Source of the DNA: a bacterium
Lineage (GTDB): Bacteria; UBA8248; JACPRG01; G963555815
Assembly (NCBI GenBank): GCA_965261595.1
Contig: CBDHDG010000004.1
Span: 544,001-608,000, forward strand
DNA length: 64,000 bases
Direction: 5' to 3'
Of the stretch, positions 1 to 40,454 are shown in pieces. Position 1 is the stretch's first letter. The number at the start of each line of letters is the position of its first letter. The notes under the pieces were generated by a model. It had not been told where the DNA came from. It did not search any database and was given only the letters and a program-made list of their open reading frames with translations. A program made the position numbers and the translations under genes.

Positions 1-743
1 CCGCCGTCGACGGGCAGGCTTACGCCGTGGACGAATCGGGCCGCGTCGGAGGCCAGAAAGACTACGGCGGGCGCCACGTCGGCGGGTTGCCCGATCCGGC
101 CGAAGGGCGTCGAGTCGACGGCGAACTTCACGAATTCCGGGTCCTTGTGGAGCTCTACGCTCATGGCCGTGGCAATCTCGCCCGGGGCGATGGCGTTCAC
201 GCGGATGCCCTCCCCCGCCAGCTCCGCCGTCATCGCCTTGGTCATCAACTCGATCGCACCCTTGGTGGCGCAATAGGCCACCGACTCCGGGAAGGAACGA
301 TGCCCGGCGATGGAGGAGGTGAAGATGATGACCCCTCCGTTGCGGAGTTGGGGAAGCGCCAACTGGACCATCTCGAACGGGGCCCGGACATGCGTCACCC
401 ACTGCCGGTCGAGGCTTTCCAGCGGGAAGGTCTCAAATGGGCCGTATTCATGGATCCCCGCGTTGTTGACGAGGACGTTGAAGGCGCCGAAGACTTCGAC
501 CGCCTTCGAGACAATCGACTCCGGCGCGCCCGGCGCCGTCAGGTCCGCCTGAAAGACGCGGCACTCGCCTCCCTGCTCGCCGATCTCGCGCGCCACGCCT
601 TCGAGGCGCTCCTGATTCCGTCCGACGGCGAACACGCGCGCGCCCGCGGCCGCCATCTGCCGGGCGATCTCCGCGCCGATGCCCGAGCTCGCCCCCGTCA
701 CAACAGCCGTTTTCGACGTCAGCTCAAATTGGGAATTCGCCAT
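1..743 (-). CDS. SDR family NAD(P)-dependent oxidoreductase (3' end runs off window)
   Basis: Not in the ORF track. Manual translation from ATG 743 gives MANSQFELTSKTAVVTGASSGIG (TGxxxGIG), NNAG, YCATK (YxxxK) and C-terminal FLASDAARFVHGVSLPVDGG. Confidence 0.9.
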   Translation of the reverse strand, partial: MANSQFELTSKTAVVTGASSGIGAEIARQMAAAGARVFAVGRNQERLEGVAREIGEQGGECRVFQADLTAPGAPESIVSKAVEVFGAFNVLVNNAGIHEYGPFETFPLESLDRQWVTHVRAPFEMVQLALPQLRNGGVIIFTSSIAGHRSFPESVAYCATKGAIELMTKAMTAELAGEGIRVNAIAPGEIATAMSVELHKDPEFVKFAVDSTPFGRIGQPADVAPAVVFLASDAARFVHGVSLPVDG

Positions 744-779
744 TGGACCCGTCCCCCCCCCCCACGCTGTTCTCCCGGC

Positions 780-1997
780 TCAGTTCCACCATCGCTTGGG
801 ACAAGCGGCGGTCAACACCTCGCACCCATCGGCGGTAATCCGCACGTCCTGCTCGAAGCCCGCCGCACCCACCTCGGGACGCCCCACGAGGGCCTCCACC
901 GCGATGGTCATGTTCTCCTCCAGCACCGTTTCCTCTCCCTCGATGATCCAGGGGGGCTCCAGCCCCACGCCGATGCCGTGGCCGAAGGCCGGGAAAAGCT
1001 CGCCGAACTCGGTCCCCGCTCCCTCGGACCCCGCCCGGTGTGAGGCGAACCCGTTCTCCACCAGCCAGGAAGACCCCTGCTGGTACATCGCGTCAACGGT
1101 GATTCCCGGCTTGATGATCTCGATGATGCTCTCGACCACTCCGATGGGGGCCTCCAAGACCTCCCGCTGCGCGTCGGTGGGCCTGCCGCCGACGAGGTTC
1201 GAGCGGACAAGGTCGGTGTAGTAGCACTCGACCGGACCCCAGGCGTCTACGTGAACGATGTCCCCGTCTTCCAGTTTGCGCTCGTAGTCCCATGCGGGGA
1301 TGCCGAACCGCTCAAAGCGGTGGGAATTGGGGCCAGAGGCGACGGCCACGTCATAAGGAAACCCGCCGTGGGCCGCAAAGTATTTCAACCCTTCCCCCAC
1401 GAAGTCTCCTTCCGTCTTACCCGCCTGGACGGCCTCCATCATGGTGCGCATCCACTCAACGCCCACCGCCGCCGCGTGCTTCATGATCGCGATCTCGCCG
1501 CCGCTCTTCACCCTTCGCAGCGTCTCTAGAATGTCGTCGGCGGGCTCCGTTTTCAGGGAATGCCCGAGCGTCTCTTCCATGAGCTGGAAACTGTGATGGA
1601 GCAGACATTCCCTTCCGACCAGCCCGAGCTTGGCCTTGGCCAACCCGGTTTCTTTCAAAACTTCCGCTGTCTTCCGGGGGACCTTCAAGGTCGACCGTAC
1701 GTCATCGACAAACGTCTTCGCTTTCGGGTAATCGGGTAGATCGACGACGAGAACGGGGTCGGCGTCCACCGGCAGGATCAGCGCGCTGTACGATCGGGCC
1801 GTCCAGATCGGGGTTTCCGAATTGTGCGGGAAGGGAGAGTGATGATTGGTCAGGTAGAGAACATCACCGTAGTAGTCGACGGTCGACCCGCCCCGCGACC
1901 ACACCAGAAGTCCGTCCAAACCTCGTTCCTTGGCGGCTGTCACCGCTTTCCGTCTGCGATCCGCGAATTCTTCCGCCGGAATTTCCAAACTTTTCAC
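780..1997 (-). CDS. M24 (Xaa-Pro peptidase/creatinase-like) family hydrolase
   Basis: Creatinase-type N-domain plus pita-bread metal ligands: HVD, TDLVR, GHGIG, VEA, FEQD. Confidence 0.88.
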   Translation of the reverse strand: MKSLEIPAEEFADRRRKAVTAAKERGLDGLLVWSRGGSTVDYYGDVLYLTNHHSPFPHNSETPIWTARSYSALILPVDADPVLVVDLPDYPKAKTFVDDVRSTLKVPRKTAEVLKETGLAKAKLGLVGRECLLHHSFQLMEETLGHSLKTEPADDILETLRRVKSGGEIAIMKHAAAVGVEWMRTMMEAVQAGKTEGDFVGEGLKYFAAHGGFPYDVAVASGPNSHRFERFGIPAWDYERKLEDGDIVHVDAWGPVECYYTDLVRSNLVGGRPTDAQREVLEAPIGVVESIIEIIKPGITVDAMYQQGSSWLVENGFASHRAGSEGAGTEFGELFPAFGHGIGVGLEPPWIIEGEETVLEENMTIAVEALVGRPEVGAAGFEQDVRITADGCEVLTAACPKRWWN

Positions 1998-2051
1998 ACC
2001 GTCACCTCATTTCCGAACCCGCTGCTTGGGCCGTAAGCAGTGCTCAACGTT

Positions 2052-3059
2052 TCACGATGATCCGGGGATTCCCGCCTGCTCGAGGATGGCGGCCAGATTT
2101 CCTCCCAGAATTTTCTGGCGTTCCGCATCGGGCAGGGTTTGCAGGGCGGGAAGCGCCAATTCGCCCTCCGGATCCCCAACCTCGAAAGGATAGTCCGTTC
2201 CGAAAACCACTCGATCCGCACCGACCCGATCGATCAAAAACTGAAGGGATGCGCTGCCAGCGAGGAGACAATCATAGTAGAGCTGTCCGAGGTATTCCGC
2301 GGGCGGCTTTGAGATATTCGCATGGCAGGCCGGATTTGCTTCATAGGCGGAGGCGAAGTACCCGAGGTTGATCCGATCCCCGAGAAAGGGAAGCGTCCCC
2401 CCGCCATGAGCGAGGACCAGTTTCAAGCCCGGATGCCGTTCGAGGACACCCGCGTAGATCAGGCGCGCGGCGGCGATGGTCGTCTCTGTCGGAAAGGCCA
2501 CGGTGGTATTGAGGGTATAATCCTCGAGGCTCGCATGAGAGAGGCTCGGACTCGGATGCATGAAGACCAGCAATCCCATATCAGCCAGCGCGGCGAACAT
2601 CGGTTCAAAATCAGGCTCATCCAGGAACCGGCCGGCCGCGTGCGTATTGATGGCCGCCCCCTTGAAGCCGTGCGACTCGACGGCGCGCCGCAATTCATCG
2701 GGGATGAGAGAGGGCTCCGCCAGACACAGAAGGGCCAGCCCTCCGAGGCGTCCGCCGGCCTCGTCGACGAGTTTCACCGTGTATTCATTGATTCGGCGCG
2801 TCTGCTCGACGCTCCCCGCCAGTTGCTGGTCGAGAAAAATCGAAACCGGCGACGATACCAGTTGGAGATCGACCTGTCTTTCCTCAAGGCTTTTGAGGCG
2901 GCCTTCCAAGTCGAAAAGCAGAGGGTCCAAAGGACCGTATTTCGGGTGCGCAAATCCCCCGCCTTCCAGTTTTTCCAAATGAAGGCCGAACCATGGGCTA
3001 CGCGCCATTTCGTTGGCAAGCTCATGGCTAATCGCATGGGCGTGGACATCGATGATCAT
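2052..3059 (-). CDS. Amidohydrolase_2 family protein (ACMSD-like decarboxylase/hydratase)
   Basis: Motifs IDVHAH, FMHP, AHGGG and FGTDYP. Confidence 0.88.
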   Translation of the reverse strand: MIIDVHAHAISHELANEMARSPWFGLHLEKLEGGGFAHPKYGPLDPLLFDLEGRLKSLEERQVDLQLVSSPVSIFLDQQLAGSVEQTRRINEYTVKLVDEAGGRLGGLALLCLAEPSLIPDELRRAVESHGFKGAAINTHAAGRFLDEPDFEPMFAALADMGLLVFMHPSPSLSHASLEDYTLNTTVAFPTETTIAAARLIYAGVLERHPGLKLVLAHGGGTLPFLGDRINLGYFASAYEANPACHANISKPPAEYLGQLYYDCLLAGSASLQFLIDRVGADRVVFGTDYPFEVGDPEGELALPALQTLPDAERQKILGGNLAAILEQAGIPGSS

Positions 3060-3552
3060 GCTGTCAACCGGCCTCTACTCTTCTTGGGCGCAAAAAACAA
3101 TCGCCCCTTGGGTTGAAAATTCGAGTTGCGCCCGAAGGCGGGGGGTCCGCGAAATCTTCCTGAAGTCTGCCACGGCGGATGGAAAGGCGTCAATCATTCG
3201 GGAGCCCGAAATCCACCCGGAATATTTTCCAACCCGGATCCCTGCCGCGCCGCGACCCAAACTCCGAATCGTGTCGGACGCTCGGAAAACCCCGCGCGAA
3301 CACCCGAGCAACCGGACCGGACTGTCCGGCGGCTTCGGTGCGGGATATTTCCCGGGAAAAGAGAGCACCTCCGGCAGCCGCGGAGAATGAAATGACTTAT
3401 GTGCACCCAATCGGAAACTCGTATACCATCATGGCATAGACTGAAAGAAATAATCCTTTCCCATGAATGCCGGATGGGAGAACGAAAGGCCGGGTCCGGG
3501 AAGCTTGATTCCTTCACGGCGACCTGTCCGAGAAAACGGGAGATGGCGTCCA

Positions 3553-4746
3553 ATGAGCACTCAAAAGACCTATTACACTCCGGATAACCTCAAATGGTAT
3601 GACCCGTTGCCGGCATCCCCCGCCGTCCGGGCGGGCGACCTCCTTTTTATTTCCGGGCAGGTGGCCTTGGACTCCGATTTCAAGCCTGTTTTCAATGGCG
3701 ACGTCTCCGCCCAGGCCCGGTATGCCTTCGACAACATCCGACAGATTTTGGAGATGGCGAACGGAACCCTCGACGACGTGGTCGAGTTGATGGTGTTCGT
3801 CAAAGACCCCCGGGACATGGACGCCATTTACGAAATCGCCCGGGAGCACTTCCAAAAAGACTACCCCGCCTGGACCCTGGTCGGAAGCCTCGGGTTCCAC
3901 AACAGCGAGTCCCTGGTCAGCATTCGGGCCATCGCCCATCTCGGGAAAGCCGAAAAGAAATGCTACACGCCCGATACGCTGAAGTGGTGGAAGAACCTCC
4001 CCGTCTCGGCCGGTTGCAAGAAAGGCGATCTGATGTTCATCTCCGGCCAGGTGGCCGCGGATGCGGACGGGATGATCGTGACCCCGGGGGATCACGCCGG
4101 CCAAGCCCGATTTGCCTTCAACCGCTTCAGGGAGATTGTCGAAATGGCCGGAGGCAAGATGGAGGACATCATCGATCTCATCTGCTTCTCCCGCGACCCG
4201 CGTGGAATGATTCCGGTCTGCGACACCTGGTGCAACGAATTCGTCAACGACTTGCCCTTCGATGAGATTGCGGCCTACACGGCCATCGGGACGACAGGCC
4301 TGTACGACCCCGGCATGATGAGCGCTAACCGGGCGATCGTCGATTTCAGCCCGGGCAAACGCATCGCCAAGACGCCCGCGAGCATTTGGTGGAAAATAAC
4401 GCCGATTTCAGGGGGATCGAAAAAAGAAGGGGGCCGGGTGATTGGGCTGGCCGGCCAGGTCGCCTCCGATGGAGACGGCTTCATCACAACACCGGGTGAT
4501 GTAAACGCGCAGGCCCGCTACGCCTTCAACCGCCTTCGGGAAGTATTGGCGGACTTCGGCGCGTCGATGGATAACATCATCGAGGTGATTTCCTTCCATA
4601 AAGACCCCCGCGATTGGGAAATCGTGATGGAAGTCGGACACGAGTTTTTCCAAAAAGATCAGGCCCCGGCCTGGACGCCCGTGGGCACGACCGGGCTCTT
4701 CAAAGAAGGATTTCTCCACGAGATTTATGCCTTGGCGATCATGTAA
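3553..4746 (+). CDS. Triple-domain Rid (YjgF/YER057c/UK114) family protein
   Basis: Three tandem repeats of (S/A)GQVA...QAR(Y/F)AF...DPR...(P)A(W/Y)T. Start set at ATG 3553 (MSTQKTYY) after GGGAGA. Confidence 0.88.
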   Translation: MSTQKTYYTPDNLKWYDPLPASPAVRAGDLLFISGQVALDSDFKPVFNGDVSAQARYAFDNIRQILEMANGTLDDVVELMVFVKDPRDMDAIYEIAREHFQKDYPAWTLVGSLGFHNSESLVSIRAIAHLGKAEKKCYTPDTLKWWKNLPVSAGCKKGDLMFISGQVAADADGMIVTPGDHAGQARFAFNRFREIVEMAGGKMEDIIDLICFSRDPRGMIPVCDTWCNEFVNDLPFDEIAAYTAIGTTGLYDPGMMSANRAIVDFSPGKRIAKTPASIWWKITPISGGSKKEGGRVIGLAGQVASDGDGFITTPGDVNAQARYAFNRLREVLADFGASMDNIIEVISFHKDPRDWEIVMEVGHEFFQKDQAPAWTPVGTTGLFKEGFLHEIYALAIM

Positions 4747-4825
4747 ACCTCCCTGCGGACCTCCGACCGGAACCTGGGAGGATCTTCGGCTCCAGCAGTC
4801 AAGGGCCGAACGAACCGAAGCCCCC

Positions 4826-4854
4826 TTGAATTCCAATAAGGGCTTAGCTATACT
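4826..4854 (+). promoter_or_regulatory. Putative sigma70 promoter for the DUF3179/ABC operon
   Basis: TTGAAT-N17-TATACT in an AT-rich intergenic patch. Confidence 0.55.
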
Positions 4855-5022
4855 CAGAAGATATTCGAGAAATATTTTCGATCGCATTGGGCCGGGGTTG
4901 GATTTGCATCCAACGGCTAGAGGGCGCCGTCGAACTCGCGGGCCTTGGTTAAATCCAACCTCGACACGGGTGGATGGTTTGCGAATTCAGGCAAGACTCG
5001 CTCAAAGAGGGGAGGACCTCAC

Positions 5023-6870
5023 TTGATTATCCAACGGTTCAAGAATGAGGAAGAGAAAAAGCTCTTGATCTCCCACGTCGCCGCCGAGTGGGATATGGCG
5101 AACGGCTTCTACACCACGCCCCGCATGAGAGATAAGTTTTTCTATCCGCTGACGGACCCGAAATGCGTCCCCGCGGCGGAGGCCGATCACATGCTGGACA
5201 CTGACCATGTGGTGGGCGTCCACCACAAGGGGAAAGCCCGGGCCTATGTTCTCTACATCCTGGACTACTACCACCACCTGAACGACGTGATTGAAGGAGA
5301 CCCTCTCGTCTTCAGCACGTGAGAACGCTGCGGAACGGGTAACGCATTCAGCGGTCTGCTGAACAACCAACGGCTTCAATGGGGACACTGCGGCATTCTT
5401 TTGGCCCAGGCGGGGGCGCGAGACCTGGGAACCGACAGCTATTGGTGGCCTTTGGAGGGTCTTTGTTACACAGGCGAATTCAAGGACGAGATGCTGGACC
5501 CCATCCCGGTGGTCCACTGCACCTGGGGCGAGTGGAAGGAAATGCACCCGGACACGGACGTCCTGGCGGCGCCGGAGGATCCGAATCACCGCGATCCCCG
5601 AGGTGGACACGGCTCAGAGGAGTATTGGGAGCGGCCCGGCATGGACCAGCTCTTCATTCACTCCCTGTTCAAGGGAGATCTCGACCGCCAGCTTCCGGAA
5701 AACGCGATGATCATGGGCATCAACCTGGCGAGAGGTCACCGGGCATACCCTCTGACGGACATCAAGCTGGAGGGAGGTCTCGTCAATGATGTCCTGGGCG
5801 ATGTCCCTCTCCTCCTGCTTTCCGGGCCTTCCCCCGAGAGCTTCTATTCCGGGGCCTTTGACCGAAGGGTCGGAGACCGGGTCCTTGAGTTTGAGGTCCG
5901 GGACGCGAGAATCGTCGACAAACAAACCGGCAGCACGTGGACCTCGGAAGGGTGCGCCGCCGAAGGCGAGCTGAAGGGAACTGAGCTTCAGCCCATCCAC
6001 AACATGCTCACCCGGTGGCATTCATGGATCTACTCGCACCCTGAAACGGAGATTTTCAGAACGGAATTGCGGGAGGCCCCCAATGTCAAAACGGGAATCT
6101 TTGAAAAGATCATTGAGGGGCTCCGCGAGGCGCTGAACGATGTCCGGGTCGAAAGGGAACTCCTCAACCTTGAACGCCCACTCGAATCCGACCGGGGACT
6201 GGTTGTTCACATAGACGGCGACCGCTTCCTTCTTCACCACTTCACCAGTGAGACGGCCGCGCGGGACCACGCCTATTTCGCAAAGAAGGCCGTTCGCGCG
6301 GGGTTGTACGTCCTCCAGTCCGACCCCGAGCGGCAATTTGCGGACATCGCCCTGAACAACTCCCTGCTCCCGGACGAGGAGATCCAGTGGTCGAACCTTG
6401 TGGGAAACAAGGACTTCGAGAGCCGGTTTCAACGCTCGACGCCCGAAGAAGACGGGGGGGGAGACTACCCCGGTTTCAGCGACATCCTCGCCGGGCTCAA
6501 CGAGAACGGGATCGACTGTTTCCCCGGAGCGCCCGAGATGCACACGGACATCGTGAATTGGTCGCCCTGGGGGACCTACGTCGGCCTCCGGCCGGGGGAG
6601 GAGAACTGGTTCGTCGTGACCATCGATACGATGGACCCCTTCGAGATCCACCGTTTCAAAACGGTCGAGGCGGCCGATGAATTCGTAGCGTTCGTGAAAC
6701 ACGCCTTCCGGATCGGGCGGTATGCGTTTTACTCGACTCCCCTGGACCGGTTCACCCTCCCGAGGTTCCGGATGGTGGACAAGCCGGAGGAGCGGGTGGA
6801 CTGGTCGGCGTTTCTGGAGGACGACGAATTCAAGGCCGTCCTCCGCAAGATCATCCAAGATGAGCGTTGA
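5023..6870 (+). CDS. DUF3179-domain selenoprotein (Sec at UGA 5320-5322) with a duplicated C-terminal domain
   Basis: ORFs 4945-5322 and 5401-6870 are in the same frame and separated only by TGA: PLVFST-U-ERC-GTGNAF, matching the DUF3179 CxxC motif. RBS GGAGG 5011-5015 precedes TTG 5023; product 615 aa. Other DUF3179 motifs: ARAY..L, NDV, TWGEWKEMHPDT. Confidence 0.85.
5347..5363 (+). promoter_or_regulatory. Bacterial SECIS-like hairpin
   Basis: TTCAGC-GGTCT-GCTGAA: perfect 6-bp stem with a G-led loop about 30 nt 3' of the UGA. Its GGUCUGC core matches the apical part of the E. coli fdhF SECIS as recalled. Confidence 0.75.
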
Positions 6871-7053
6871 GCGCGGAAGACGGTTTTGGCCGGACGCGAC
6901 GGAGGCGTCCGACCCGCCGGTCGGGCGGTCGGGCCGGGTTTCCGGCTCAGAGCCGCCCCGGTGCAAAGCCGAACGGCGATTCCGCCTCCTTGACCCTTGT
7001 TCCCGGAACATTGCGTTCAAGGCGGCGACCTGAAAGGGAGTGAGATCGGCGAA

Positions 7054-8046
7054 ATGAATACAAGCGGCGCCGGAAGCCCGGCGTTCGTGATCCGATCACT
7101 GGGGTCGATTCGCCCCCTGGCCCACCGTCTGTTCATGGGCGTCGGCGCGCTTCCCGTGGTGATCGTCGTCCTGGGTGTGATCTTCTGGTACTTTCAGCCC
7201 AGGTTTCTGTCCCAGACCAATCTGATCAACGTCGCCCGGCAAGGCTCCTTCCTGGCCATCGCGGCCTGTGCGCAGATGTTCCCCATCCTCTCCGGGGGCT
7301 TCGACCTTTCGGTGGGGGCGATCTTCGCGCTGGTCAGCGTCATCATGGCCCAGTTGACGCTGGAGGTGGGGATGGCCTGGGGGGCCGCGGTCGCCCTGTG
7401 CGCCGCCGGTCTCGTGGGCTTGTTCAACGGGCTGGTGATCTCCACCTTCCGGGTTTCCCCGTTTGTCGTCACCCTCGGAACCCTCTCGGCGGTCCGGGGG
7501 GTGGCGCTCATCTTGGCCAATGGACAGCCGATCTTCGGCATGCCAAAGCACTTCTCCTTCCTCGGGGCGGGCTACGTGGGGCCGATTCCCATCCCCGTTA
7601 TCGTGGGGGCGGCGGTGTTTTTGGTCGGCTATTTCCTGTTGAGGTGGACGCGGTTCGGGCGCTACATGTACGCCATCGGCGGCAACGAGGAAGCGGCCCG
7701 CATCTCCGGAATCCACATCAAGCGGTACACGACCCTGGCGTACGTCGCGTGCAGCCTTCTCAGCGGAATCGCCGGCGTGGTGCTGAGCTCGCGCGTCCGA
7801 TCGGGTCAGCCGACGCTGGGGGACGGCATGGAGCTGGAATCCATCGCGGCGGTCGTCATCGGGGGCGTGGCCCTCGGCGGAGGGTCGGGCACGCTCCCGG
7901 GCGTCCTGTACGGAGCGATCATCCTCAGCGTCATCCAGAACGGCCTCAATCTCATGAACGTTTCCACCTTCACGCAGTATGTCGTGATCGGGATGATCAT
8001 CACCGTTGCGGTCATCTTCGACCGTCTCCGCCACTCGCAGCACTGA
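7054..8046 (+). CDS. Monosaccharide (RbsC-like) ABC transporter permease
   Basis: GGFDLSVG, AIGGNEEAARISGI and ELESIAAVVIGG motifs; hydrophobic. Confidence 0.92.
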   Translation: MNTSGAGSPAFVIRSLGSIRPLAHRLFMGVGALPVVIVVLGVIFWYFQPRFLSQTNLINVARQGSFLAIAACAQMFPILSGGFDLSVGAIFALVSVIMAQLTLEVGMAWGAAVALCAAGLVGLFNGLVISTFRVSPFVVTLGTLSAVRGVALILANGQPIFGMPKHFSFLGAGYVGPIPIPVIVGAAVFLVGYFLLRWTRFGRYMYAIGGNEEAARISGIHIKRYTTLAYVACSLLSGIAGVVLSSRVRSGQPTLGDGMELESIAAVVIGGVALGGGSGTLPGVLYGAIILSVIQNGLNLMNVSTFTQYVVIGMIITVAVIFDRLRHSQH

Positions 8047-8132
8047 TGAGAGAAAGGGGCAAGGTCCGGCAGAGAGGAGAACCCGACGCAGGTTCTTGTT
8101 GAAACTCACAACCGCAAGAGGAGGGCGTACGA

Positions 8133-9188: not shown

Positions 9189-9436
9189 GGAACCGATACG
9201 GTGCGGAATTCAGCAAAGGATTTCAGTTTCGCCCGTTGAGCGGATGAGTGCTTCGGCCGGGGGGCCATTGGCCCCCCGGCCCTTGTTTCAGATCCAATCT
9301 CCCCTTGAACCATTGGTGTTGTACAGGTATTTCTGAATGCCCCCCGAACTTTTCCCGGTTTGGGACCGATTCATAAAGATTGGACCTCGGACCGGGGGTC
9401 TCTTTTACCGGGTTCAGCGGTGAAACGAGAATCGAA

Positions 9437-10966
9437 ATGGAAAAAGAAACCCGTCCCTTACTGCATCTAAGCGGGATCGTAAAACGGTTCCCCGGAGTCC
9501 TCGCGCTGAGCGGCGTGGATTTCGATTTGGAACCGGGCGAGGTGCACGTGCTGCTGGGGGAGAACGGCGCCGGAAAGAGCACCCTGATTAAGATCATCTC
9601 CGGCGTGTACACCCCCGATGAAGGCGAGGTTCGCTTCAACGGGGAACCCGTGAAAATCGATAACCCACACGACGCCATGGCCCGCGGCATCGCGACCATC
9701 CATCAGGAATTCAGCTTGGTCCCGGACATGACGGTCGCAGAGAATATCTCCCTGGGCAAAGAGCCGACCCGGGGAAACGTCTTCATCAAGTCCAAGGAAA
9801 TGGTGAAGACGGCCGGCGAGATCCTGCGGAAGCTGGGACTCGAGCTGCACCCCCAGCGAAAGGTCCGCGCCCTTCGCATCGGCGAGCAGCAGATGGTCGA
9901 AATCGCCAAGGCCCTTTCCATCGAGTCGAGGGTCTTGATCCTGGATGAGCCCACCGCCGCCCTCACCGACAAAGAGATCGAGCACCTGTTCGAGATCATT
10001 CAGGGGCTGAAGCGTCAAGGCGTCGGGATCATCTACATCTCCCACCGGCTGGAAGAGATCCGGGAGATCGGCGATCGGGTGACAGTCCTTCGGGACGGTC
10101 GGCGCGTCGGAACCCGGAAGCTCGCGGACACCAATGTGGACGAGCTCATCTCCATGATCGTGGGAGAGGAAATCAAGGAAAAATTCCCAAAGAAGCCGGC
10201 GCCGGTGGGCCGGGAGTTGATGCGGGTCGAGGGCCTCACGGCGGACGGCGATTTCTCAGGCATCTCCTTTTCGGTGTTCGAGGGAGAGGTGCTGGGGTTC
10301 GCAGGACTGCTGGGCGCCGGCCACAAGGAGTTGGTTCGCGCGATCATCGGGCTTTCCCCTTATCGGAGCGGTCGAATCCTCATCTCGGGCAAGCCGGTGA
10401 AGATCACCCAACCGGCCGACGCGATCCGCCGCGGCATGACCTACCTCCCCGCCGACCGAAAGATGGAGGGATTGGTCCTCCCCCTGTCCGTGAAGGACAA
10501 CATCTCGCTGGCCGGCCTCAAGCAATTCGTCCGGGGCGGCCTGCTTAATCTCAAACGGGAGCACCAGACCGCAGGCGACTACTTCGACCGGCTCGGAATC
10601 AAGGCCCCCGGCATCCAGACCCTGGTTCGTTTCCTCTCCGGAGGGAACCAACAAAAGGTCGTCCTGGCCCGGTCCCTGTGCAGTCAAAGCCGAATCTTCC
10701 TGTTCGATGAGCCGACACGGGGCATCGATGTCGGGGCCAAAGTCGAGATTTATCACCTCATCAACGAGCTCGCCAAACAGGGGTCCGCGGTGATCCTCGT
10801 CTCCTCCGAGCTTCCCGAGATTCTCGGCATGTGCGACCGGATCCTGGTGATCCGCGAAGGAAAGCTCATCCGCGAATTCCCGCGCGCCGAAGCCACCCAG
10901 GAGCGAATCCTGCAAACCTTCTTCAGCAAAAATCCTCAGACCGCGGGAACCGCGCGGGAAGCCTGA
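9437..10966 (+). CDS. Sugar ABC transporter ATP-binding protein (RbsA-like, two ABC domains)
   Basis: GENGAGKST, LDEPT, LSGGNQQK and DEPTRGIDVGAK. Confidence 0.94.
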   Translation: MEKETRPLLHLSGIVKRFPGVLALSGVDFDLEPGEVHVLLGENGAGKSTLIKIISGVYTPDEGEVRFNGEPVKIDNPHDAMARGIATIHQEFSLVPDMTVAENISLGKEPTRGNVFIKSKEMVKTAGEILRKLGLELHPQRKVRALRIGEQQMVEIAKALSIESRVLILDEPTAALTDKEIEHLFEIIQGLKRQGVGIIYISHRLEEIREIGDRVTVLRDGRRVGTRKLADTNVDELISMIVGEEIKEKFPKKPAPVGRELMRVEGLTADGDFSGISFSVFEGEVLGFAGLLGAGHKELVRAIIGLSPYRSGRILISGKPVKITQPADAIRRGMTYLPADRKMEGLVLPLSVKDNISLAGLKQFVRGGLLNLKREHQTAGDYFDRLGIKAPGIQTLVRFLSGGNQQKVVLARSLCSQSRIFLFDEPTRGIDVGAKVEIYHLINELAKQGSAVILVSSELPEILGMCDRILVIREGKLIREFPRAEATQERILQTFFSKNPQTAGTAREA

Positions 10967-11140
10967 GAATCTCCTCAGCGCCGCTGGATACGACCATCGC
11001 CGTCGGCCGGATGCTTCCGGGGGAGTGTTCGAGCGGCATCCGAAGCCGAGGGAGCGCCCGGTTCACGCGGAGCGCCCCCATATCCGGGGCCGGCTGGACC
11101 ACGGGGAGCGCGAGCGGCCGGGCTTTCGAAGCTGTGACCG

Positions 11141-13465
11141 TCAGTGTGAGGCCCGGTCCGCCCCGCCCTCCAGCGCCCCCAGGACCCGTTCCGGCGTCAA
11201 GGGGATCGTCTTGATCTGCACGCCGAGGGCGTCATAAACGGCGTTGGCGATGGCGGCGGCCGTGGGCGCCAGACCGGGCTCGCCCACCCCCTTGGCCCCG
11301 TAGGGCCCCTCGGGGTGAGCCTCCTCCACGAGGATCGGGACCAGGGGCGGCAGGTCCAGCGTGCAGGGGATCTTGTAGTCTATCAGGTTCGGGTTCAACA
11401 CCCTCCCATCCTCCAAGGACATCTCCTCGAACAGCGCCGTTCCGATCCCCTGCCCCAGGGCCCCTTCAACCTGCCCGGTGCACCCGTTGGGGTTGATGGC
11501 CCGGCCCACGTCATGGGCCGCGCTGAGTTTGAGGATTTGGACCTCACCCGTCTCCTCATCCACCTCGACCTCCGCTGCCTGGGCGGCGAACATCCAGAAG
11601 ACCGCCGGCTTGTCTCCCTGCCCCGTTTCGGGATCGAGAAGCGTGCCGTCCACCGGCGTGTAATGACCGCGGCCGAGGACGGGTCCCCCAACGACGCGCC
11701 CGTCCGGACCGTAAACCCCCATGGACACATCGGCGAAAGAGACCGAGCGCTCGGGCGCCCCCCGGGGGTGGATCCTCCCGTCCCGTGCTTCCAGGTCCTC
11801 CGGCGCGGCCTCCAGCAGGACCGCCGCGGCGCGGAAGAGCTGCTGCTTGGCGTCTCCGGCGGCCAGGCGCACCGCGTTGCCGTCGAAGAAGGTCGTCTTG
11901 CTGGCGGAGGTCTCCCACCCGTACGGGGTCATAGCGGTATCGGGTTGTCCCATCGAGATCCTCCGGGGGTCGAGGCCCAGGACTTCCGCCGCGATCTGCC
12001 GCAGGATGGTGTGAGCGCCCTGGCCGTGCTCCACCGCGCTGGAGAGAAGGACCGCGCTTCCGTCTTCATTGATCTTGATGGCCGATTGGACGTGCGCTCC
12101 GGTGACGGTGAACTTCGACATGCAGGCCAGCCCCCGTCCGCGTCGTTTCCCCGCCCGCTCCACCGTCTCGTCCGGACCGCCGAGCCCGTCCGCGGCCCGG
12201 CGGATGCATTCCTTGAGCCCGACGCTCACGAGGGTCTGCCCGGTCGGCGTGAGGTCACCGGTCTCCACCCCGTTCCGCAGTCTGAGCTCGACGGGGTCCA
12301 TCCCAAGCTCCCGGGCGATGCGATCGACCTGACCCTCGTACCCGAAACAGGTCTCCGGGACGCCGAATCCCCGGTAGGCCCCCGCCACCGGCTTGTTGGT
12401 GTAAACGCAGTAGGAATCGATCCGGACGTTGGGAATCCGGTAGGGGCCGGACGCCGAGTAGCCCGCGTTTCGGGAGATGAGGACCTCATAGTCGCCGTAG
12501 GCCCCCGCTTCCCAGAGAAGACGAACCTCACGGGCCAGAAAATCCCCGTTGGACCCGACGCCCGTCTTGTACGTGATCCGGGCGGGCTGGCGCACGAAGG
12601 TGCAGGTGAACTCCTCCTCTCTGGACATCTCCAGACGCACGGGGCGGTGGTTGCATCTCAGGGAGAGGGCCCCGGCGAGGATCTCGATGACGCCGCTGAT
12701 CTTGCCGCCGAACGCGCCGCCGACGTACGAGCACACGATGCGGACATCGCTCTGGGGAAGCTTCAGCCCCTTGGCCACTTGTTCCCGGGTCAGGTAGGGG
12801 CCCTGGGTGTTGCTCCACAGGGTGAGCTTTCCCTGCGGGGAGAACTGCGCGACACAGGCGTGGGGCTCCAGGGGGCAGTGCTGGACCATGGGGATCTCGA
12901 AGGTATCCTCGAAGATGCGGTCCGATCGCCGGAATCCCCCCTCCACGTCCCCCCGGCGGAGCTTGAAATGGTTGCAGATATTGGTTCCCGGGACCGGAGC
13001 GAAGAGCTTCCGGTTGCACGCGTATTGGCCGAGGTCGGGATGCAGGAGGGGTGCGTCGGGGGCTGCGGCCTCGACGGGATCGAACAGCGGCGGAAGTTCT
13101 TCGTACTCGACCTGGATCAGATCCAGGGCTTCTAGGGCGGCGTCTTCGTCGACGGCGGCCACGCCGGCCACCGCCTCGCCCACGTAACGAACGCGGTCCA
13201 CGGCGTAAATGGGCTGATCGGCCAGCATCATCCCCCAATTCGAATCGGGGTGGTCCGCTCCCGTAACGACCGCCCGGACTCCCGGCAGACGCTTCGCCCG
13301 CTCCGTATCGACGCGCAGAACCCGGGCATGGGGCAAGGGGCTTCTCAGGATCTTCGCGTGGAGCATCCCGGGCCGGACCACGTCCGTCCCGTACACCGCC
13401 ACCCCGCTCGCCTTGTCGTAACCGTCCCCCCGCTCGTAGGAGGCCCCGATCCAGGTTGATTTCAT
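11141..13465 (-). CDS. Xanthine dehydrogenase-family molybdopterin-binding (large) subunit
   Basis: GMLHAKILRSP, GGAFGGK, AYRGFG and GPYGAKGVGE. True start MKSTWIG at 13465 after GGAGGGGGAG. Confidence 0.92.
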   Translation of the reverse strand: MKSTWIGASYERGDGYDKASGVAVYGTDVVRPGMLHAKILRSPLPHARVLRVDTERAKRLPGVRAVVTGADHPDSNWGMMLADQPIYAVDRVRYVGEAVAGVAAVDEDAALEALDLIQVEYEELPPLFDPVEAAAPDAPLLHPDLGQYACNRKLFAPVPGTNICNHFKLRRGDVEGGFRRSDRIFEDTFEIPMVQHCPLEPHACVAQFSPQGKLTLWSNTQGPYLTREQVAKGLKLPQSDVRIVCSYVGGAFGGKISGVIEILAGALSLRCNHRPVRLEMSREEEFTCTFVRQPARITYKTGVGSNGDFLAREVRLLWEAGAYGDYEVLISRNAGYSASGPYRIPNVRIDSYCVYTNKPVAGAYRGFGVPETCFGYEGQVDRIARELGMDPVELRLRNGVETGDLTPTGQTLVSVGLKECIRRAADGLGGPDETVERAGKRRGRGLACMSKFTVTGAHVQSAIKINEDGSAVLLSSAVEHGQGAHTILRQIAAEVLGLDPRRISMGQPDTAMTPYGWETSASKTTFFDGNAVRLAAGDAKQQLFRAAAVLLEAAPEDLEARDGRIHPRGAPERSVSFADVSMGVYGPDGRVVGGPVLGRGHYTPVDGTLLDPETGQGDKPAVFWMFAAQAAEVEVDEETGEVQILKLSAAHDVGRAINPNGCTGQVEGALGQGIGTALFEEMSLEDGRVLNPNLIDYKIPCTLDLPPLVPILVEEAHPEGPYGAKGVGEPGLAPTAAAIANAVYDALGVQIKTIPLTPERVLGALEGGADRASH

Positions 13466-13506
13466 CGTCTCTCCCCCTCCCCCTCCCCTGTCGGCCGCGT
13501 GCGCTG

Positions 13507-14700
13507 TCATTCCCCCCGATCCCTCCAGAACCGGCAGTAGGCGTGATACAGGAGCGACGAGGCGTTTTTCCGCCAACACCGGAGAGAATCTTTCCCTTCG
13601 TGCATCAGGCAGAGGTTGCACGAGGTGCAATCGACGAGCCCGCGTCGCCCGTTTCGGATCTGGTCCACGATATCGGGTTCCCGAATATAGGTCCGGGCCA
13701 TGGCCAGAAAGTCGGCGTCGCCCGAAGAGAGGACCCGCTCCATGGTTTCCGTTGTCCTCAGCCCGCCCACGAGGATCACGGGAATCCCGAGCCGCTTCTT
13801 CATGGCCCGCGCGTACGGCAGAAAGTACGCCTCTCGGCCCGGAGGGGAAGCCAAGCGGTGAAAGAGCCAGTCCCGCGCGGCCCTTCCAGGACCGACGCCG
13901 ATGTATTCCCCGCAACTGTCGCTCTCCTTCTCCATCACGCCGCAAGAGACCTCGATGGCGTCCAGCCCCATCTCCTCCAGCGCAGCGGCCAGATCGACGC
14001 TCTCCGCGACGGTGAGACCCCCCTCGACGGTATCGGCCACGCCCAGTTTCAGCGTCACGGGGATGTCCGGACCCACGACCTCGCGGACCTTCCGGTACAC
14101 CGCAAAGAGAAACCGGCTGCGGCGCTCCGGGTCGCCTCCCCATTCATCCTCCCGGCGGTTGGCGTGGGGCGAGTTGAACTCGCTGGCGAGATACCCGTTC
14201 GCGCTGTGGATGTGAACCCCATCGAATCCGGCTTCGACCGCCCGGTTCGCCCCTCTTCCGAACGCCTCAATCATCTCCTCGATCTGCCGGGGGGTGATCT
14301 CGGCCGGCAGGCGATCGGTCAGGGCGTTGGGGATGACCGAAGGGGCGATGGGCGTGACGGCGGGAACACGGCACTGGCTTCCCGTGTGGGCAAGCTGGGC
14401 GAAGATCCTTCCGCCCTCCCGGTGGACCGTCTGGGCCAACTGGGTGAGGCCGGGTGTGAGGTCGTCATCGTAGATGCCCGTCTGCCGGTGAAAATACTGG
14501 CCCGACGGGTGGATGTAGAGGTGGCAGGTGAAGAGGAGTCCCACACCGCCTCGGGCAAGGTCCCGGTAGAGTGTCTTGAGGTCCTCGGTGACCTCCCCCC
14601 GATCGGAGGCCATGGTCTCCGAGGTCGCCGCCCGGATGAAGCGGTTCTTCAGCGTCAATGAGCCGATCCGGCCCGGTTCGAAGAAGGTGGTTGCCGTCAT
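13507..14700 (-). CDS. NADH:flavin oxidoreductase (Old Yellow Enzyme family)
   Basis: LKNRF, AGFDGVHIHSANGYL, NRREDEWGG and C-terminal CxxCNxC. Confidence 0.92.
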   Translation of the reverse strand: MTATTFFEPGRIGSLTLKNRFIRAATSETMASDRGEVTEDLKTLYRDLARGGVGLLFTCHLYIHPSGQYFHRQTGIYDDDLTPGLTQLAQTVHREGGRIFAQLAHTGSQCRVPAVTPIAPSVIPNALTDRLPAEITPRQIEEMIEAFGRGANRAVEAGFDGVHIHSANGYLASEFNSPHANRREDEWGGDPERRSRFLFAVYRKVREVVGPDIPVTLKLGVADTVEGGLTVAESVDLAAALEEMGLDAIEVSCGVMEKESDSCGEYIGVGPGRAARDWLFHRLASPPGREAYFLPYARAMKKRLGIPVILVGGLRTTETMERVLSSGDADFLAMARTYIREPDIVDQIRNGRRGLVDCTSCNLCLMHEGKDSLRCWRKNASSLLYHAYCRFWRDRGE

Positions 14701-14773
14701 CTCCCGCGCCTCCCCAAAGGGCCACTTCCCTTCCACGGCTCACCGAGCCCACCGTCTGACAGAGCCCACCGGC

Positions 14774-15481
14774 TCATAGGGCGCGAAGGATGCTCTCTTT
14801 CGCGTTGAGAACATGACGCTCCATGGTTTCCGCCGCCTTGGCGGAATCCCCCGACTCCAAATACCGGAGGATCTTCCGATGCTCCTTGTACGCCATGGAG
14901 ACCGGCCGCCGGACCTGCGCCACGTCCAGGTGAATCACGCGCTCCATCCGGTCGAGGACCTGTTCCGTGGCGTCGAAGAGGAGGCGGTTTTTCGCCGCTC
15001 CCGCGATGAGCTCATGGAATCGGCGATTCAATTTCGGGAACTCGGTCAGGACGCCCTCGTCCTCGAATCTCGACGTGGATTCCACGACCCTGCGCAGGGC
15101 CTCCAGCTCTTCCTTGCCGATCCGCTTGGCGGCCAGCCCGGCCGTCCCCCGCTCGATGACGCACCGAAGCTCGAGGGTCTCGAGGACGTCCTGCAGACTG
15201 ATGGGCGAAATCTGATACCCGCGGCCGTGGAGGGACTCGACAAACCCGCCCCGTTGAAGTCAGGCCAGAGCCTCCCGCACCGGGGTCTTGCTGACCCCGA
15301 ACCGATCGGCGAGACTTCCCTCCAGAATGATTTCGCCCGGGGGGAACTGGGTCCGGATGATCTCCTGCTTGAGCTCGGAATAGACCCGCTCTTTGAGCGA
15401 CAGGGCCGAGCCCGCCCCCGTTTGTGACCTCAAGCCGCGCCCCCTTCGGCGCGGCGTTCTCGTGCGGGTCGCGTTTTTCAT
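14774..15481 (-). pseudogene. GntR/FCD transcriptional regulator with an internal nonsense codon
   Basis: The HTH (LADRFGVSKTPVREALA) reads through TGA 15260-15262 in frame into LQRGGFVESLHGRGY and the FCD domain (NRRFH...EH). Confidence 0.85.
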
Positions 15482-15687
15482 TTCCGACCGATCTCAGCCC
15501 TCGGGATGAAATCCGCCATGGGTCATCCCCCGGGCAAAGCAAGACTTCCGGGAACGGCCCGATTGCCGGGGCCCCCGGTTCGCGCCCGCACCGGACTCCC
15601 GGACGCAAGGACGCATGACCCCAGGGCGCAAAGCGGATCCTTTCGCGATTCTCCAGCGGAATTATAACACTGGTCGAAGGGCGAGAA

Positions 15688-15722
15688 ATATCTTGAGCTA
15701 ATATCAGAAAGATATGTATACT
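15688..15722 (+). promoter_or_regulatory. Putative promoter/operator upstream of the second Rid gene
   Basis: TTGAGC-N18-TATACT overlapped by the inverted repeat ATATCTT-N14-AAGATAT, in the gntR/rid divergent gap. Confidence 0.45.
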
Positions 15723-15784
15723 ATTTTTCAGTTCGTTCGAATTTCAGCCATCTTCACCCAACCCATCCAAGGCGGAGGCTGACT

Positions 15785-17050
15785 GTGGGCAAAGAACTGA
15801 TCGAGGCGGATTCCGCGCCGAGGTCCCTGCTGCATGCCCCTCAGGCCGTGCGCAGCGGACCCCTTGTCTTTGTCTCGGGTCTCTACGCGACGGACTTCCA
15901 GACGGGCATCCCCGTCCACTCCAACCCGAACTTCCCCTTCGCGGGGAAAACCGACATCGAGCTTCAAACCGGGTACATCCTGGACAACCTTCAGACGATT
16001 CTCCGCGCGGCCGGGACGGACCTGGACCAGGTGGTCAAGACCGAGGTCTTCCTGACCGATCCCCCCCTGCTTCCCTGGATGGAGGAGGTCTGGCGGGAGC
16101 GGTTTCCCCGGGCCCCCCCGGCCCGGACCCTCATCGAAGTGGGAGACGAGCACATCATTCCCGGGGCGCTGATCGAGGTCTACGCCATCGCCGTCGTCCC
16201 GGACGCGAATACCCGCAAAGAGGTCATCTCGCCCGCGGGTTTCCCCAACGTCCGCGAGCACTGCTCCCCGGCCGTAAAGGCCGGTCCCTTCCTGTTCCAC
16301 TCGGGCCTTCCCGCCACGGACTTCGAGACCGGCATCCCCGTCGGGAAAGATCCAAAATTCCCTTATTACCGGAACAACGCCGAGGACCAGGCGGAGTACG
16401 TCCTGTCCAACATGGAAAGATGCGCCCAGGCCGCGGGGACGACGCTTCAGAACGCCGTCAAGTCACAGCACTATCACGTGGACCGCAACGATTTCCACGA
16501 TATCGACCGCGTCTGGAAAAAGTACATGAACGTTCCGCCGCCGCGAAGCTCGATGGAGATCAAGGGGTTCATGGTGCCGGGGGCGCTCACAACGGCCAAC
16601 CTGATCACCCTCATTCCGGACGAAACCCACCAAAAGCGGGAGGTTCTGTACGACGAGCAGTTTCACCCGGGCATGCGGGGCGTGCATTTTTCGCCAGCTG
16701 TCGAGGCGGGGGAATGGCTCTTCCTGGCGGGTCAGGTCGCCAGCGACTTCAAGGAGCCCGTGTACGGCGTCCACCCGGGAATGCCCCACCACGGTGTCGA
16801 CATCGCGATCCAGACCGAGTACACCCTGAAGAACCTTCAAGCGCTCCTGGAGCACTGCGGGGCAACGCTCGACGATGTCGTCGCGGCCCACATCTACCTC
16901 CTGGAGCCCAGGAGAGACTACCGGGGCTTCGAGCGCGTCTGGCGCCGATTCGTCCCCGACAATCCCCCCGCCCTGACGGTCATTCCCAGTACGGGGATCA
17001 TGTTCCACGGCCCGTTGATCGAGATCGATTTCATCGCGCGCAGAGGATGA
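15785..17050 (+). CDS. Triple-domain Rid family protein
   Basis: Three repeats of (P)AV..G...F.(S/A)G..A.DF...Q..Y.L.N...PP. Confidence 0.88.
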   Translation: MGKELIEADSAPRSLLHAPQAVRSGPLVFVSGLYATDFQTGIPVHSNPNFPFAGKTDIELQTGYILDNLQTILRAAGTDLDQVVKTEVFLTDPPLLPWMEEVWRERFPRAPPARTLIEVGDEHIIPGALIEVYAIAVVPDANTRKEVISPAGFPNVREHCSPAVKAGPFLFHSGLPATDFETGIPVGKDPKFPYYRNNAEDQAEYVLSNMERCAQAAGTTLQNAVKSQHYHVDRNDFHDIDRVWKKYMNVPPPRSSMEIKGFMVPGALTTANLITLIPDETHQKREVLYDEQFHPGMRGVHFSPAVEAGEWLFLAGQVASDFKEPVYGVHPGMPHHGVDIAIQTEYTLKNLQALLEHCGATLDDVVAAHIYLLEPRRDYRGFERVWRRFVPDNPPALTVIPSTGIMFHGPLIEIDFIARRG

Positions 17051-17188
17051 AGAAGGCTCTGCGGGAGAGCCACCCGCCCCCGCGAGATCGTGCGTCCATT
17101 TTCCGGGAGGAATTCCATGAAACCGAAAGCCGTTTAGTCCAGTGGACCGCCCCTGGGTTATTGGACACTCGGGTGAGGGTATTCGACC

Positions 17189-27261: not shown

Positions 27262-27273
27262 GGTCGAATACCC

Positions 27274-40378: not shown

Positions 40379-40454
40379 CAGGATACCCGAGTGGTCTTGT
40401 GAATCCGTCAACAAAAGTTGGACCCTTGTCCCTTCCCGGAGGAGGACATCATCG

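Follow-up and report, generated by a model that had tools for sequence, protein, structure and literature searches.

A candidate oxygenase-free catabolic island linking a predicted DUF3179 selenoprotein to a sugar-type ABC importer

We analysed a 64,000-nucleotide (nt) stretch of bacterial DNA (GTDB lineage Bacteria; UBA8248; JACPRG01; G963555815; NCBI GenBank assembly GCA_965261595.1), comprising positions 544,001–608,000 of contig CBDHDG010000004.1 and hereafter called the window. The subject of this report is a gene island at window positions 1–17050 that carries a DUF3179 gene with an in-frame TGA. Gene content was taken from a listing of open reading frames (ORFs) and from Pfam and NCBIfam profile scans of the window proteins. 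These scans confirm the 11 intact genes and single dead GntR gene, disabled by one TGA, that an earlier reading of the letters alone (the original prediction) had counted in ∼17 kb. The genes form four transcription units about two divergent promoter regions (Table 1). Three genes on the minus strand lie at the left; they encode a short-chain dehydrogenase/reductase (SDR), an M24 metallohydrolase and an Amidohydro_2 protein. Divergent from the Amidohydro_2 gene, five plus-strand genes encode a protein with three fused Rid domains (Rid A), a long-form DUF3179 protein, and the permease, binding protein and double ATPase of a CUT2 ABC importer. Minus-strand genes for a GntR/FCD regulator, an Old Yellow Enzyme (OYE)-family flavoprotein and the large subunit of a molybdenum (Mo) hydroxylase converge on the ATPase gene from the right. 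The other triple-Rid gene (Rid B) lies on the plus strand and points away from the GntR gene; a copy of an insertion sequence (IS) starts 93 bp past it. The cluster had been described as bracketed by its two triple-Rid genes, which is true of 3.5–17 kb and not of the whole 17 kb, as three genes lie left of Rid A. None of 13 island proteins reaches an equivalog cut-off in NCBIfam. The Pfam and NCBIfam scans found no oxygenase family in the 17 kb and no dehydratase, aldolase, kinase or isomerase in the island. An Rfam gathering scan of the whole window gave no match, and hence no curated selenocysteine insertion sequence (SECIS) or riboswitch.

Table 1. Features of the island and of the rest of the window (positions counted from the first letter of the window)
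Feature	Position	Strand	Match or remark
SDR oxidoreductase	3..743	-	Pfam adh_short_C2, 6.8e-59
M24 metallohydrolase with Creatinase_N	780..1997	-	Peptidase_M24, 3.3e-29
Amidohydro_2 protein, ACMSD-type	2052..3059	-	Pfam, 4.5e-37
GAAATATC motif	3344..3351	-	divergent Amidohydro_2/Rid A intergenic region
Triple-Rid A (3x-Rid, 397 aa)	3553..4746	+	three Ribonuc_L-PSP stretches; listed ORF 3463..4746
Sigma-70-like promoter TTGAAT-17-TATACT	4826..4854	+	upstream of DUF3179; GAAATATT next at 4869-4876
Long-form DUF3179 protein, predicted selenoprotein (615 aa)	5023..6870	+	Pfam DUF3179; in-frame TGA at 5320-5322
SECIS-like hairpin	5347..5363	+	stem UUCAGC/GCUGAA, loop GGUCU; loop begins 30 nt past UGA
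CUT2 ABC permease	6997..8046	+	BPD_transp_2, 8.9e-35
Periplasmic binding protein	8133..9188	+	Peripla_BP_4, 1.1e-47
Perfect 12-bp all-GC hairpin	9255..9281	+	terminator-like scan; between binding-protein and ATPase genes
CUT2 ABC ATPase, two fused ABC domains	9380..10966	+	ABC_tran x2, 4.4e-56
Mo-hydroxylase large subunit, xanthine dehydrogenase family	11141..13510	-	Ald_Xan_dh_C, MoCoBD_1, MoCoBD_2
OYE stop/Mo subunit ATG overlap (ATGA)	13510-13507	-	
Short OYE-family flavoprotein (409 aa)	13507..14736	-	Oxidored_FMN, 3.6e-62, residues 18-364
GntR/FCD regulator pseudogene	14774..15481	-	FCD, 1.6e-25; TGA at 15260-15262
GAAATATC motif	15685-15692	+	abuts the next promoter
Sigma-70-like promoter TTGAGC-18-TATACT	15693-15722	+	upstream of Rid B
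Triple-Rid B (421 aa)	15785..17050	+	three Ribonuc_L-PSP stretches
IS copy 1 (1404 bp)	17143..18546		right border of island; blastn; HTH_21 + rve
IS copies 2-5	20001-21404, 24143-25547, 25904-27308, 29029-30441		
IS copies 6-8	34774-36177, 42627-44030, 52947-54350		
Second nitrogen-compound cluster	36431-41177	+	NMT1-type binding protein, Amidohydro_1, DUF1989, isochorismatase-family protein
Mobile elements: D5-like primase, tyrosine integrase, IS1595-type and Mutator-type transposase fragments, second rve transposase	27274-28623, 46214-46996, 22243-22968, 32103-32969, 47192-48121	-, -, -, +, +	
Multihaem c-type cytochromes (several) and cNMP-binding 4Fe-4S protein	48272-50479, 56662-57285, 59436-60443, 54408-55943	-, -, +, -	
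PNPOx-like gene, C-terminal end	63848-64000	-	67% identical to L003 gene between decarboxylase and Rid A

The case that the DUF3179 gene is decoded by recoding of UGA to selenocysteine (Sec) is strong and well supported, as the original prediction of a selenoprotein had proposed. The gene appears to start at a TTG, judging from a GGAGG 7 nt upstream, and its in-frame TGA would place U100 within T-U-E-R-C-G. Reading through the TGA gives a single Pfam DUF3179 match over residues 43–342 (E 2.5e-39), which breaks in two otherwise. Close database homologues are 457–487 amino acids (aa) long and start past the TGA, which is where gene callers would begin a Sec gene. A scan of species-representative genomes with one peptide pattern, followed by tblastn and Pfam, returned five further loci (L001–L005) in four genomes: a Nitrospinota metagenome-assembled genome (MAG) with two loci, two unclassified MAGs and a Dehalococcoidia MAG. 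In all five, the N- and C-terminal pieces of the protein are exactly one codon apart. That codon is TGA in every one of eight copies (the window, L001, L003, L004, and two each in L002 and L005), within the motif T-U-(E/D)-R-C-G, and the TGA and both its flanks are kept down to 47–54% protein identity. All 17 full-length long-form homologues carry Cys at the Sec column and a second Cys at +3 (CxxC), and most of the classical DUF3179 proteins that were aligned likewise have CxxC at this position. Global reassignment of TGA is excluded, since 10 intact cluster genes end inside the window and eight of them use TGA as their normal stop, as does the dead GntR gene. In the accessible text of two reviews (PMC9312934 and PMC13188914), the tabulated prokaryotic selenoproteins include PF11376, a DUF3179 domain-containing family with the motif UxxC/T, for which no function is given. 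The two tandem DUF3179-Sec genes of L002 (9689–11533 and 11756–13600 of that locus) have identical DNA around the TGA and are each 70.1% identical to the window protein, and look like a recent duplication.

A SECIS-like hairpin lies downstream of the UGA. A bacterial SECIS element is a stem-loop shortly downstream of the UGA with a G in the apical loop, and we take the loop sequence and distance of this hairpin to fit that model and the E. coli fdhF element. It is present in an RNAalifold consensus of seven sequences, each of which also folds to the hairpin alone (−6.8 to −13.5 kcal/mol, z −2.25 to −4.22) with a common loop GGUCN. A first fold of the 66 nt past the UGA was no better than shuffles (z +1.0), and the hairpin emerged via the alignment alone. 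Within the window there is no Rfam SECIS match, no tRNA gene in a tRNA scan, and neither Sec machinery nor tRNA-Sec.

The island protein belongs to a long form of the family. Relative to classical DUF3179 proteins, with which it shares the Pfam domain and a Sec at the first position of UxxC (CxxC in Cys homologues), it has a C-terminal extension, no leader by eye and a conserved linkage to a CUT2 importer. The extension comprises ∼270 residues past the DUF3179 domain, without a Pfam family, and is matched by 58 representative clusters of 1.84 billion proteins (E ≤ 0.001). A Pfam scan of 39 of these clusters, leaving out P0008 and 18 short ones, found DUF3179 in 33. Fifteen of the 33 are full length, and 17 begin at profile position ≥78, which fits gene calls begun after an in-frame stop. 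Three cluster members appear as fusions, with a cyclophilin (P0160, 787 aa), GCV_H (P0171, 650 aa) and a two-module nonribosomal peptide synthetase (P0173, 2721 aa); these may be real domain fusions or gene-call read-throughs. Neither a signal peptide nor a hydrophobic or lipoprotein leader is visible by eye in the island protein, whereas classical members show leaders. AlphaFold2 modelled the full-length protein with a mean predicted local distance difference test score (pLDDT) of 84.8 and a predicted TM-score (pTM) of 0.88, and the domain alone with a pLDDT of 83.6. Foldseek searches of the PDB turned up no solved relative: with the full-length model there was no meaningful match, the best query TM-score (TMq) being 0.13 and the sole match at E ≤ 0.001 having a TM-score of 0.11; the domain model gave no match at E ≤ 0.001. 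A weak likeness to Rieske domains recurs over a ∼100-residue sub-domain (5cxm_A, probability 0.91, target TM-score 0.59, 96 columns, E 0.22), and on these models it is a lead only. The sole ESM Atlas match shown for the C-terminal region is a 630-aa DUF3179 cluster at 0.77, below the meaningful level. A search of plasmid-collection proteins with the selenoprotein gave one match, a classical DUF3179 protein on a Thiothrix plasmid.

The sugar-type ABC importer that had been read at the locus is present with all its parts: a BPD_transp_2 permease, a Peripla_BP_4 binding protein and a fused double ABC ATPase. The permease, which probably starts downstream of the first position in Table 1, is AraH/RbsC-like and 86–87% identical to its orthologues in L001 and L003; the ATPase is AraG/XylG/RbsA-like (560–570 bits). 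The binding protein has an N-terminal hydrophobic leader by eye; its best NCBIfam match is TorT (127 bits, cut-off 200) and its best PDB match is 2ioy (2e-33). The importer proteins score highest against arabinose, ribose and xylose systems, with every score below cut-off. In an alignment with 2ioy, the equivalents of D89, R90, N190, D215 and Q235 are replaced by other residues, whereas R141 and the aromatic pair remain; we take the six polar positions to be ribose contacts. The earlier suggestion of a nucleoside-like substrate is not borne out, as neither a nucleosidase nor a sugar kinase is encoded in the island, and the binding protein has substitutions at most of the polar positions that contact ribose in the ribose-binding protein. 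Between the genes for the binding protein and the ATPase lies a perfect all-GC hairpin, which may act within the operon as an attenuator or as a stabiliser favouring the binding-protein transcript.

The triple-Rid proteins differ from each other at their catalytic residues. The catalytic Arg (Arg105 of RidA/TdcF) is essential, and its mutation abolishes activity, according to the accessible text of Niehaus et al. 2015 (PMC4433059). That text names proteins with three fused RidA domains 3x-RidA, presumes them to be covalently linked trimers, and defines them as a subset of the RidA subfamily with EF_0115 as an example; it mentions no function or gene context for them. We met no use of the term beyond that paper in the literature searched (most subscription journals lie outside it). 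Both island proteins share the three tandem Rid domains in one chain with 3x-RidA. In Rid A, however, the Arg that is essential in the RidA subfamily is replaced by Trp, Tyr and Trp in domains 1, 2 and 3, respectively. Domains 1 and 3 were assigned by alignment (PAW against PAR of 2dyy, and domain 3 against YjgH), and domain 2 by reading the sequence. Rid B retains the Arg in its first two domains (PPARTLIEV against PARVAVEV of 2dyy), with Leu in the third. That none of the three sites keeps the catalytic Arg argues for a non-deaminase role of Rid A, which is probably not an imine or enamine hydrolase, while Rid B may be one; the imine deaminase assignment first made for both is thus doubtful for Rid A. 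Homologues of ∼397 aa place the start of Rid A downstream of that of the listed ORF. Its homologues form at least 277 clusters (E ≤ 1e-10). The best 120 are mostly ∼397 aa long and at least 48% identical; those with names are called 'Rid family hydrolase' or 'enamine deaminase RidA', and their sources include Chloroflexi/Chloroflexota, Amycolatopsis, Gordonia, Alphaproteobacteria, Binatia and Nitrospinota. Plasmid-collection proteins gave no match to Rid A at 1e-20. The Rid B orthologues of L003 and L004 are 83.5% and 75% identical, respectively.

The leftmost unit encodes two hydrolase-family proteins and an oxidoreductase. The SDR runs off the left window edge by a few C-terminal residues (NCBIfam match 8–247 to profile positions 2–245 of 249). 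It scores 231 bits against a glucose 1-dehydrogenase subfamily model (cut-off 215) and has orthologues of 83% identity in L003 and 81% in L004. The M24 protein falls below all NCBIfam cut-offs. Its D251, D262, H, E and E align with the five metal ligands of the Pyrococcus prolidase 1pv9, as in M24 proteins of the prolidase/ectoine-hydrolase type, and retention of these ligands suggests a di-metal amide hydrolase that is not creatinase-like. The best PDB matches of the Amidohydro_2 protein are ACMSD (4e-37), uracil-5-carboxylate decarboxylase (5e-27) and 5-carboxyvanillate decarboxylase, all three of which are non-oxidative decarboxylases; no lactonase occurs among its 38 PDB matches. An N-terminal HAH motif and MHPS, AHGG and TDYP stretches can be seen by eye, and are candidate parts of the HxH...H...H...D metal site of such decarboxylases. 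Because its closest relatives are decarboxylases of the ACMSD/IDCase type, we class this protein as a predicted non-oxidative decarboxylase and not as a ring-opening amidohydrolase.

The converging unit encodes the Mo subunit and the OYE. The best relative of the Mo subunit is the alpha subunit of 4-hydroxybenzoyl-CoA reductase (TIGR03194, 598 bits against a cut-off of 994.55; 1rm6_A, 2.5e-115), and it carries GGAFGGK and GVGEPG motifs together with the hammerhead and two Moco-binding domains of its family. The Mo hydroxylase of the original prediction is present as a large subunit alone: a scan of the window ORFs showed no gene for a 2Fe-2S or FAD subunit. The OYE matches only the N-terminal barrel half of the FadH, BaiCD and mycofactocin OYE models (2–347 of a 645-position model) and is without the C-terminal FAD and NAD(P)H domains of FadH/BaiCD-type enzymes; its PDB relatives are YqjM-type enzymes and the FadH structure 1ps9. 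A C-terminal CxxCxxCx11C motif, also found in L003, is presumably the 4Fe-4S motif of the FadH/BaiCD group. The stop codon of the OYE gene and the ATG of the Mo gene overlap as ATGA, which suggests translational coupling; the two genes are ∼55 nt apart in L003.

Several features suggest that the units are regulated together. The TGA of the GntR gene, its sole defect, lies inside the helix-turn-helix opposite a Leu of the L003 GntR and leaves the FCD domain intact; the two proteins are 74% identical over 211 aa, and the L003 protein is an intact 237 aa. A consensus scan of 17.2 kb found only two promoter-like sites, preceding DUF3179 and Rid B. The DUF3179 gene thus has a predicted promoter of its own and stands immediately before the importer genes. 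Both are conserved in L003, as TTGAAC...TATACT with GGAAATATTTTT before the DUF3179 orthologue and as a near-identical stretch before Rid B. The motif GAAATATY occurs five times in the 64 kb, a count that none of 100 shuffles reached. Three of the five matches lie in the three intergenic regions of the cluster, and two of the three L003 matches are at equivalent places, suggesting a shared operator. In the sister genomes a GntR/FCD repressor probably controls all units via AGAAATAT(C/T)TT-like sites. A GntR-type palindrome, TNGTATACNA, was also considered. It had no match in the five loci, and the 8-mer with one mismatch was not enriched (five matches, 2.95 expected); the idea was dropped, since GTATAC is part of the −10 box TATACT.

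The genes recur together elsewhere, with different degrees of completeness, so the refuting condition set with the original prediction, a lack of co-occurrence in other genomes, does not hold. L003 keeps all 13 query pieces in the order and orientation of the window at 68–86% identity, with an intact GntR gene; in addition, a gene for a PNPOx-like protein separates Rid A from the decarboxylase, and genes for a CN_hydrolase and an amidase lie on the left side. The core of DUF3179 and ABC genes is retained in L001, L004 and L005. L001, whose left side is cut by the contig end, encodes Rid A, DUF3179, the permease, binding protein and ATPase, two Mo large subunits in succession, and an NMT1 protein. 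L004 encodes a single Rid, Rid B, a third 3x-Rid, DUF3179, permease, CN_hydrolase, binding protein and ATPase, followed by two small ORFs, an SDR, an M24 protein and an Amidohydro_2 protein that is 31% identical. L005 has a permease, binding protein, ATPase, another permease and two DUF3179 genes, the first apparently disrupted. In L002 the tandem DUF3179 genes lie near a complete Mo hydroxylase (FeS, Mo and FAD subunits), a Bmp/PnrA-type binding protein and a LigAB dioxygenase. Across the five loci, DUF3179-Sec adjoins a CUT2 ABC set in four and a 3x-Rid gene in three, and lies near a Mo hydroxylase in three. Other neighbours are C-N hydrolases (CN_hydrolase, amidase, Amidohydro_1), Mo hydroxylases and PNPOx-like proteins. 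In L004, the CN_hydrolase gene (13253–14179 of that locus, plus strand) interrupts the importer genes after the permease and before the binding protein, which ties C-N hydrolysis directly to the DUF3179 operon.

We propose, at roughly even chances, that the 17 kb forms a single co-regulated catabolic island, free of oxygenases, for the breakdown of an imported non-sugar nitrogenous organic acid, in which DUF3179 redox chemistry is tied to the importer. The island is conserved, and probably co-regulated, in uncultured, Nitrospinota-related bacteria. Its protein families are in keeping with an oxygen-independent route of water-derived hydroxylation, flavin reduction, hydrolysis and decarboxylation. 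Among possible substrates, the best fit would be a pyridine- or pyrimidine-type carboxylate, a cyclic amide or an imino acid. Ordering the reactions by family chemistry, the binding protein and importer would bring the compound in, and the Mo subunit would hydroxylate, with water, a C-H beside the ring nitrogen. The short FMN/[4Fe-4S]-type OYE would then reduce an activated C=C, and the ACMSD-type protein would take off the carboxyl group. The di-metal M24 enzyme would hydrolyse an amide, a step for which the sister loci may use CN_hydrolase or amidase, and the SDR would oxidise or reduce a carbonyl or alcohol. Finally, Rid B, with Arg in two of its three sites, would hydrolyse an imine or enamine, and Rid A, without Arg, would have a different role. 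The UxxC centre of DUF3179 most likely serves as a selenol/thiol redox couple acting on the imported compound or an early intermediate.

Several observations weigh against this proposal. The locus sample is small and made of relatives, and the whole gene set occurs in only one of the five fetched loci. A second Mo large subunit and the NMT1 protein stand at the expected OYE place in L001, in L004 neither a Mo nor an OYE gene occurs within 10 kb, and L002 and L005 share little beyond DUF3179. Genes for 2Fe-2S and FAD subunits are absent both from the 17 kb and from beside the Mo orthologues of L001 and L003, so the Mo subunit would need partners encoded elsewhere to work as proposed. Rid A has no catalytic Arg in any domain, and no island protein matches a substrate-specific equivalog. 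On the regulatory side, motif and promoter matches are few, and the number of promoter sites is not above that of shuffles (2 against a mean of 2.9). The SECIS-like hairpin shows no compensatory double change among the seven sequences, its bases also encoding conserved residues. Finally, the GntR gene is dead and the island abuts a swarm of IS copies, so the island may be decaying in this genome.

Some of these points favour a different account, in which the 17 kb holds independent modules side by side. The true unit would then be DUF3179-Sec with the CUT2 importer, often accompanied by a 3x-Rid, and the SDR-M24-decarboxylase and GntR-OYE-Mo operons would act on different substrates, their closeness to it in two related genomes being incidental. 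Consistent with this, adjacency of DUF3179 and the ABC genes alone holds in four of the five loci; the Mo/OYE unit accompanies DUF3179 in the window and L003 only, and the Mo subunit alone does so in L001. Moreover, the SDR-M24 unit of L004 is on the opposite side in changed order, and the units of the island are on different strands with their own promoters. However, L003 keeps all 13 pieces colinear at just 68–86% protein identity, the GAAATATY-type motif is common to three intergenic regions (two of them in L003), and SDR-M24-Amidohydro_2 recurs near DUF3179 in three genomes (window, L003 and L004). We consider the modular account less likely than the single island, yet the strongest of the alternatives.

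It is tempting to speculate further, and we regard as improbable the joint reading that DUF3179 is a selenol reductase for the cargo of its own importer and that the Mo subunit uses the OYE as its electron partner. On this reading, the UxxC centre would sit on the Rieske-like beta sub-domain of a cytoplasmic long-form DUF3179 and would carry out reductive C-N, N-O or S-S/Se-S cleavage, akin to the glycine and proline reductases. The OYE would replace the canonical 2Fe-2S and FAD subunits, and heterocycle hydroxylation and ring reduction would be coupled in a redox-neutral manner, independently of oxygen and NAD(P)H.

A sugar or sugar-acid locus, with a CUT2 importer for a monosaccharide, the SDR as a sugar 1-dehydrogenase and the Amidohydro_2 protein as a lactonase, is less probable still. 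Some Amidohydro_2 members are sugar lactonases, the importer scores highest against arabinose, ribose and xylose systems, and the SDR exceeds the glucose 1-dehydrogenase subfamily cut-off. Yet all transporter scores are under the equivalog cut-offs, the polar sugar-contact positions of the binding protein are substituted, and the Amidohydro_2 protein is nearest to the ACMSD, IDCase and LigW decarboxylases, with no lactonase in 38 PDB matches. The enzymes missing from the island (dehydratase, aldolase, kinase and isomerase) and the C-N hydrolases, Rid proteins and Mo hydroxylases found as neighbours also speak against it. Hardest to credit is that the TGA at 5320 is a true stop, leaving a split or dead gene, or a 99-aa peptide and a separately started protein of 460–490 aa: the short homologue entries, the missing Rfam SECIS match and the window's want of Sec machinery or tRNA-Sec would suit it, but the TGA and its flanks are kept in all eight copies down to 47–54% identity, the TGA aligns with the first Cys of CxxC in all 17 full-length forms, a conserved GGUC-loop hairpin follows, and DUF3179 is a listed selenoprotein family in the accessible text of PMC9312934 and PMC13188914.

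The proposed catabolic island can be set beside several known systems. In clusters for the breakdown of pyridine carboxylates (picolinate pic, and nicotinate routes including the Eubacterium barkeri fermentation), Mo hydroxylases occur together with Amidohydro_2 decarboxylases. These clusters combine water-based Mo hydroxylation, a Zn-type Amidohydro_2 decarboxylase, ring reduction, hydrolytic C-N cleavage, a transporter and a GntR-type regulator, features that the island would share. The island differs in having no equivalog match, no FeS or FAD subunits nearby and no oxygenase, and in adding the DUF3179-Sec protein, the 3x-Rid proteins and a sugar-type importer. Its likeness to the 2-aminophenol/kynurenine branch, where ACMSD is the closest relative of the Amidohydro_2 protein (4e-37) and 2-aminomuconate deaminase (6izh) matches domain 1 of Rid B (7e-8), is at family level only; the island has neither a ring-cleavage dioxygenase nor a semialdehyde dehydrogenase. 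RutC, a Rid protein of the Rut pyrimidine pathway, is the best NCBIfam match of Rid A, with a score below cut-off (135 bits, cut-off 169), but the RutA, B, D, F and G families are absent from the island.

The claim that the system is undescribed stands for the gene set, which has no NCBIfam equivalog and no matching pathway in the literature searched, and falls for two of its parts: the selenoprotein family and the fused-Rid architecture are known, published kinds. What we did not find in print is a long-form DUF3179 selenoprotein linked to a CUT2 importer and this enzyme set, or a widespread type of 3x-Rid without its catalytic Arg. The accessible text of the publications found to mention DUF3179 describes no operon link to CUT2 genes.

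The remainder of the window places the island beside what looks like a mobile-element graveyard, with a primase, an integrase and several transposases or fragments thereof. Eight IS copies (99.6–100% identical over 1404 bp by blastn, in both orientations, each with a 305-aa transposase ORF) riddle the 37 kb past Rid B and mark a very recent burst. The C-terminal end of a PNPOx-like gene lies at the right end of the window, and there is none at 3060–3552, unlike at the equivalent position of L003, so the island may have been rearranged here. A second nitrogen-compound cluster lies among the IS copies, and members of its families are found beside DUF3179 loci elsewhere (NMT1 in L001 and L002, Amidohydro_1 in L004, DUF1989 in L005). 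Several multihaem c-type cytochromes and a cyclic nucleotide (cNMP)-binding 4Fe-4S protein are also encoded; these fit an anaerobic or microaerobic, metal- or electrode-respiring lifestyle.

As it stands, this is an uncharacterised catabolic island, a kind common in genomes. What it offers for the DUF3179 family is a concrete way in, because a conserved operon ties the Sec protein to one importer and to defined hydrolases, a decarboxylase and redox enzymes. Knowing what the binding protein binds, or what the FCD domain of an intact sister-genome regulator responds to, would make the chemistry of the selenoprotein testable. If the proposal is true, uncultured lineages about which little is known would have an additional, oxygen-independent way of breaking down nitrogenous organic acids.

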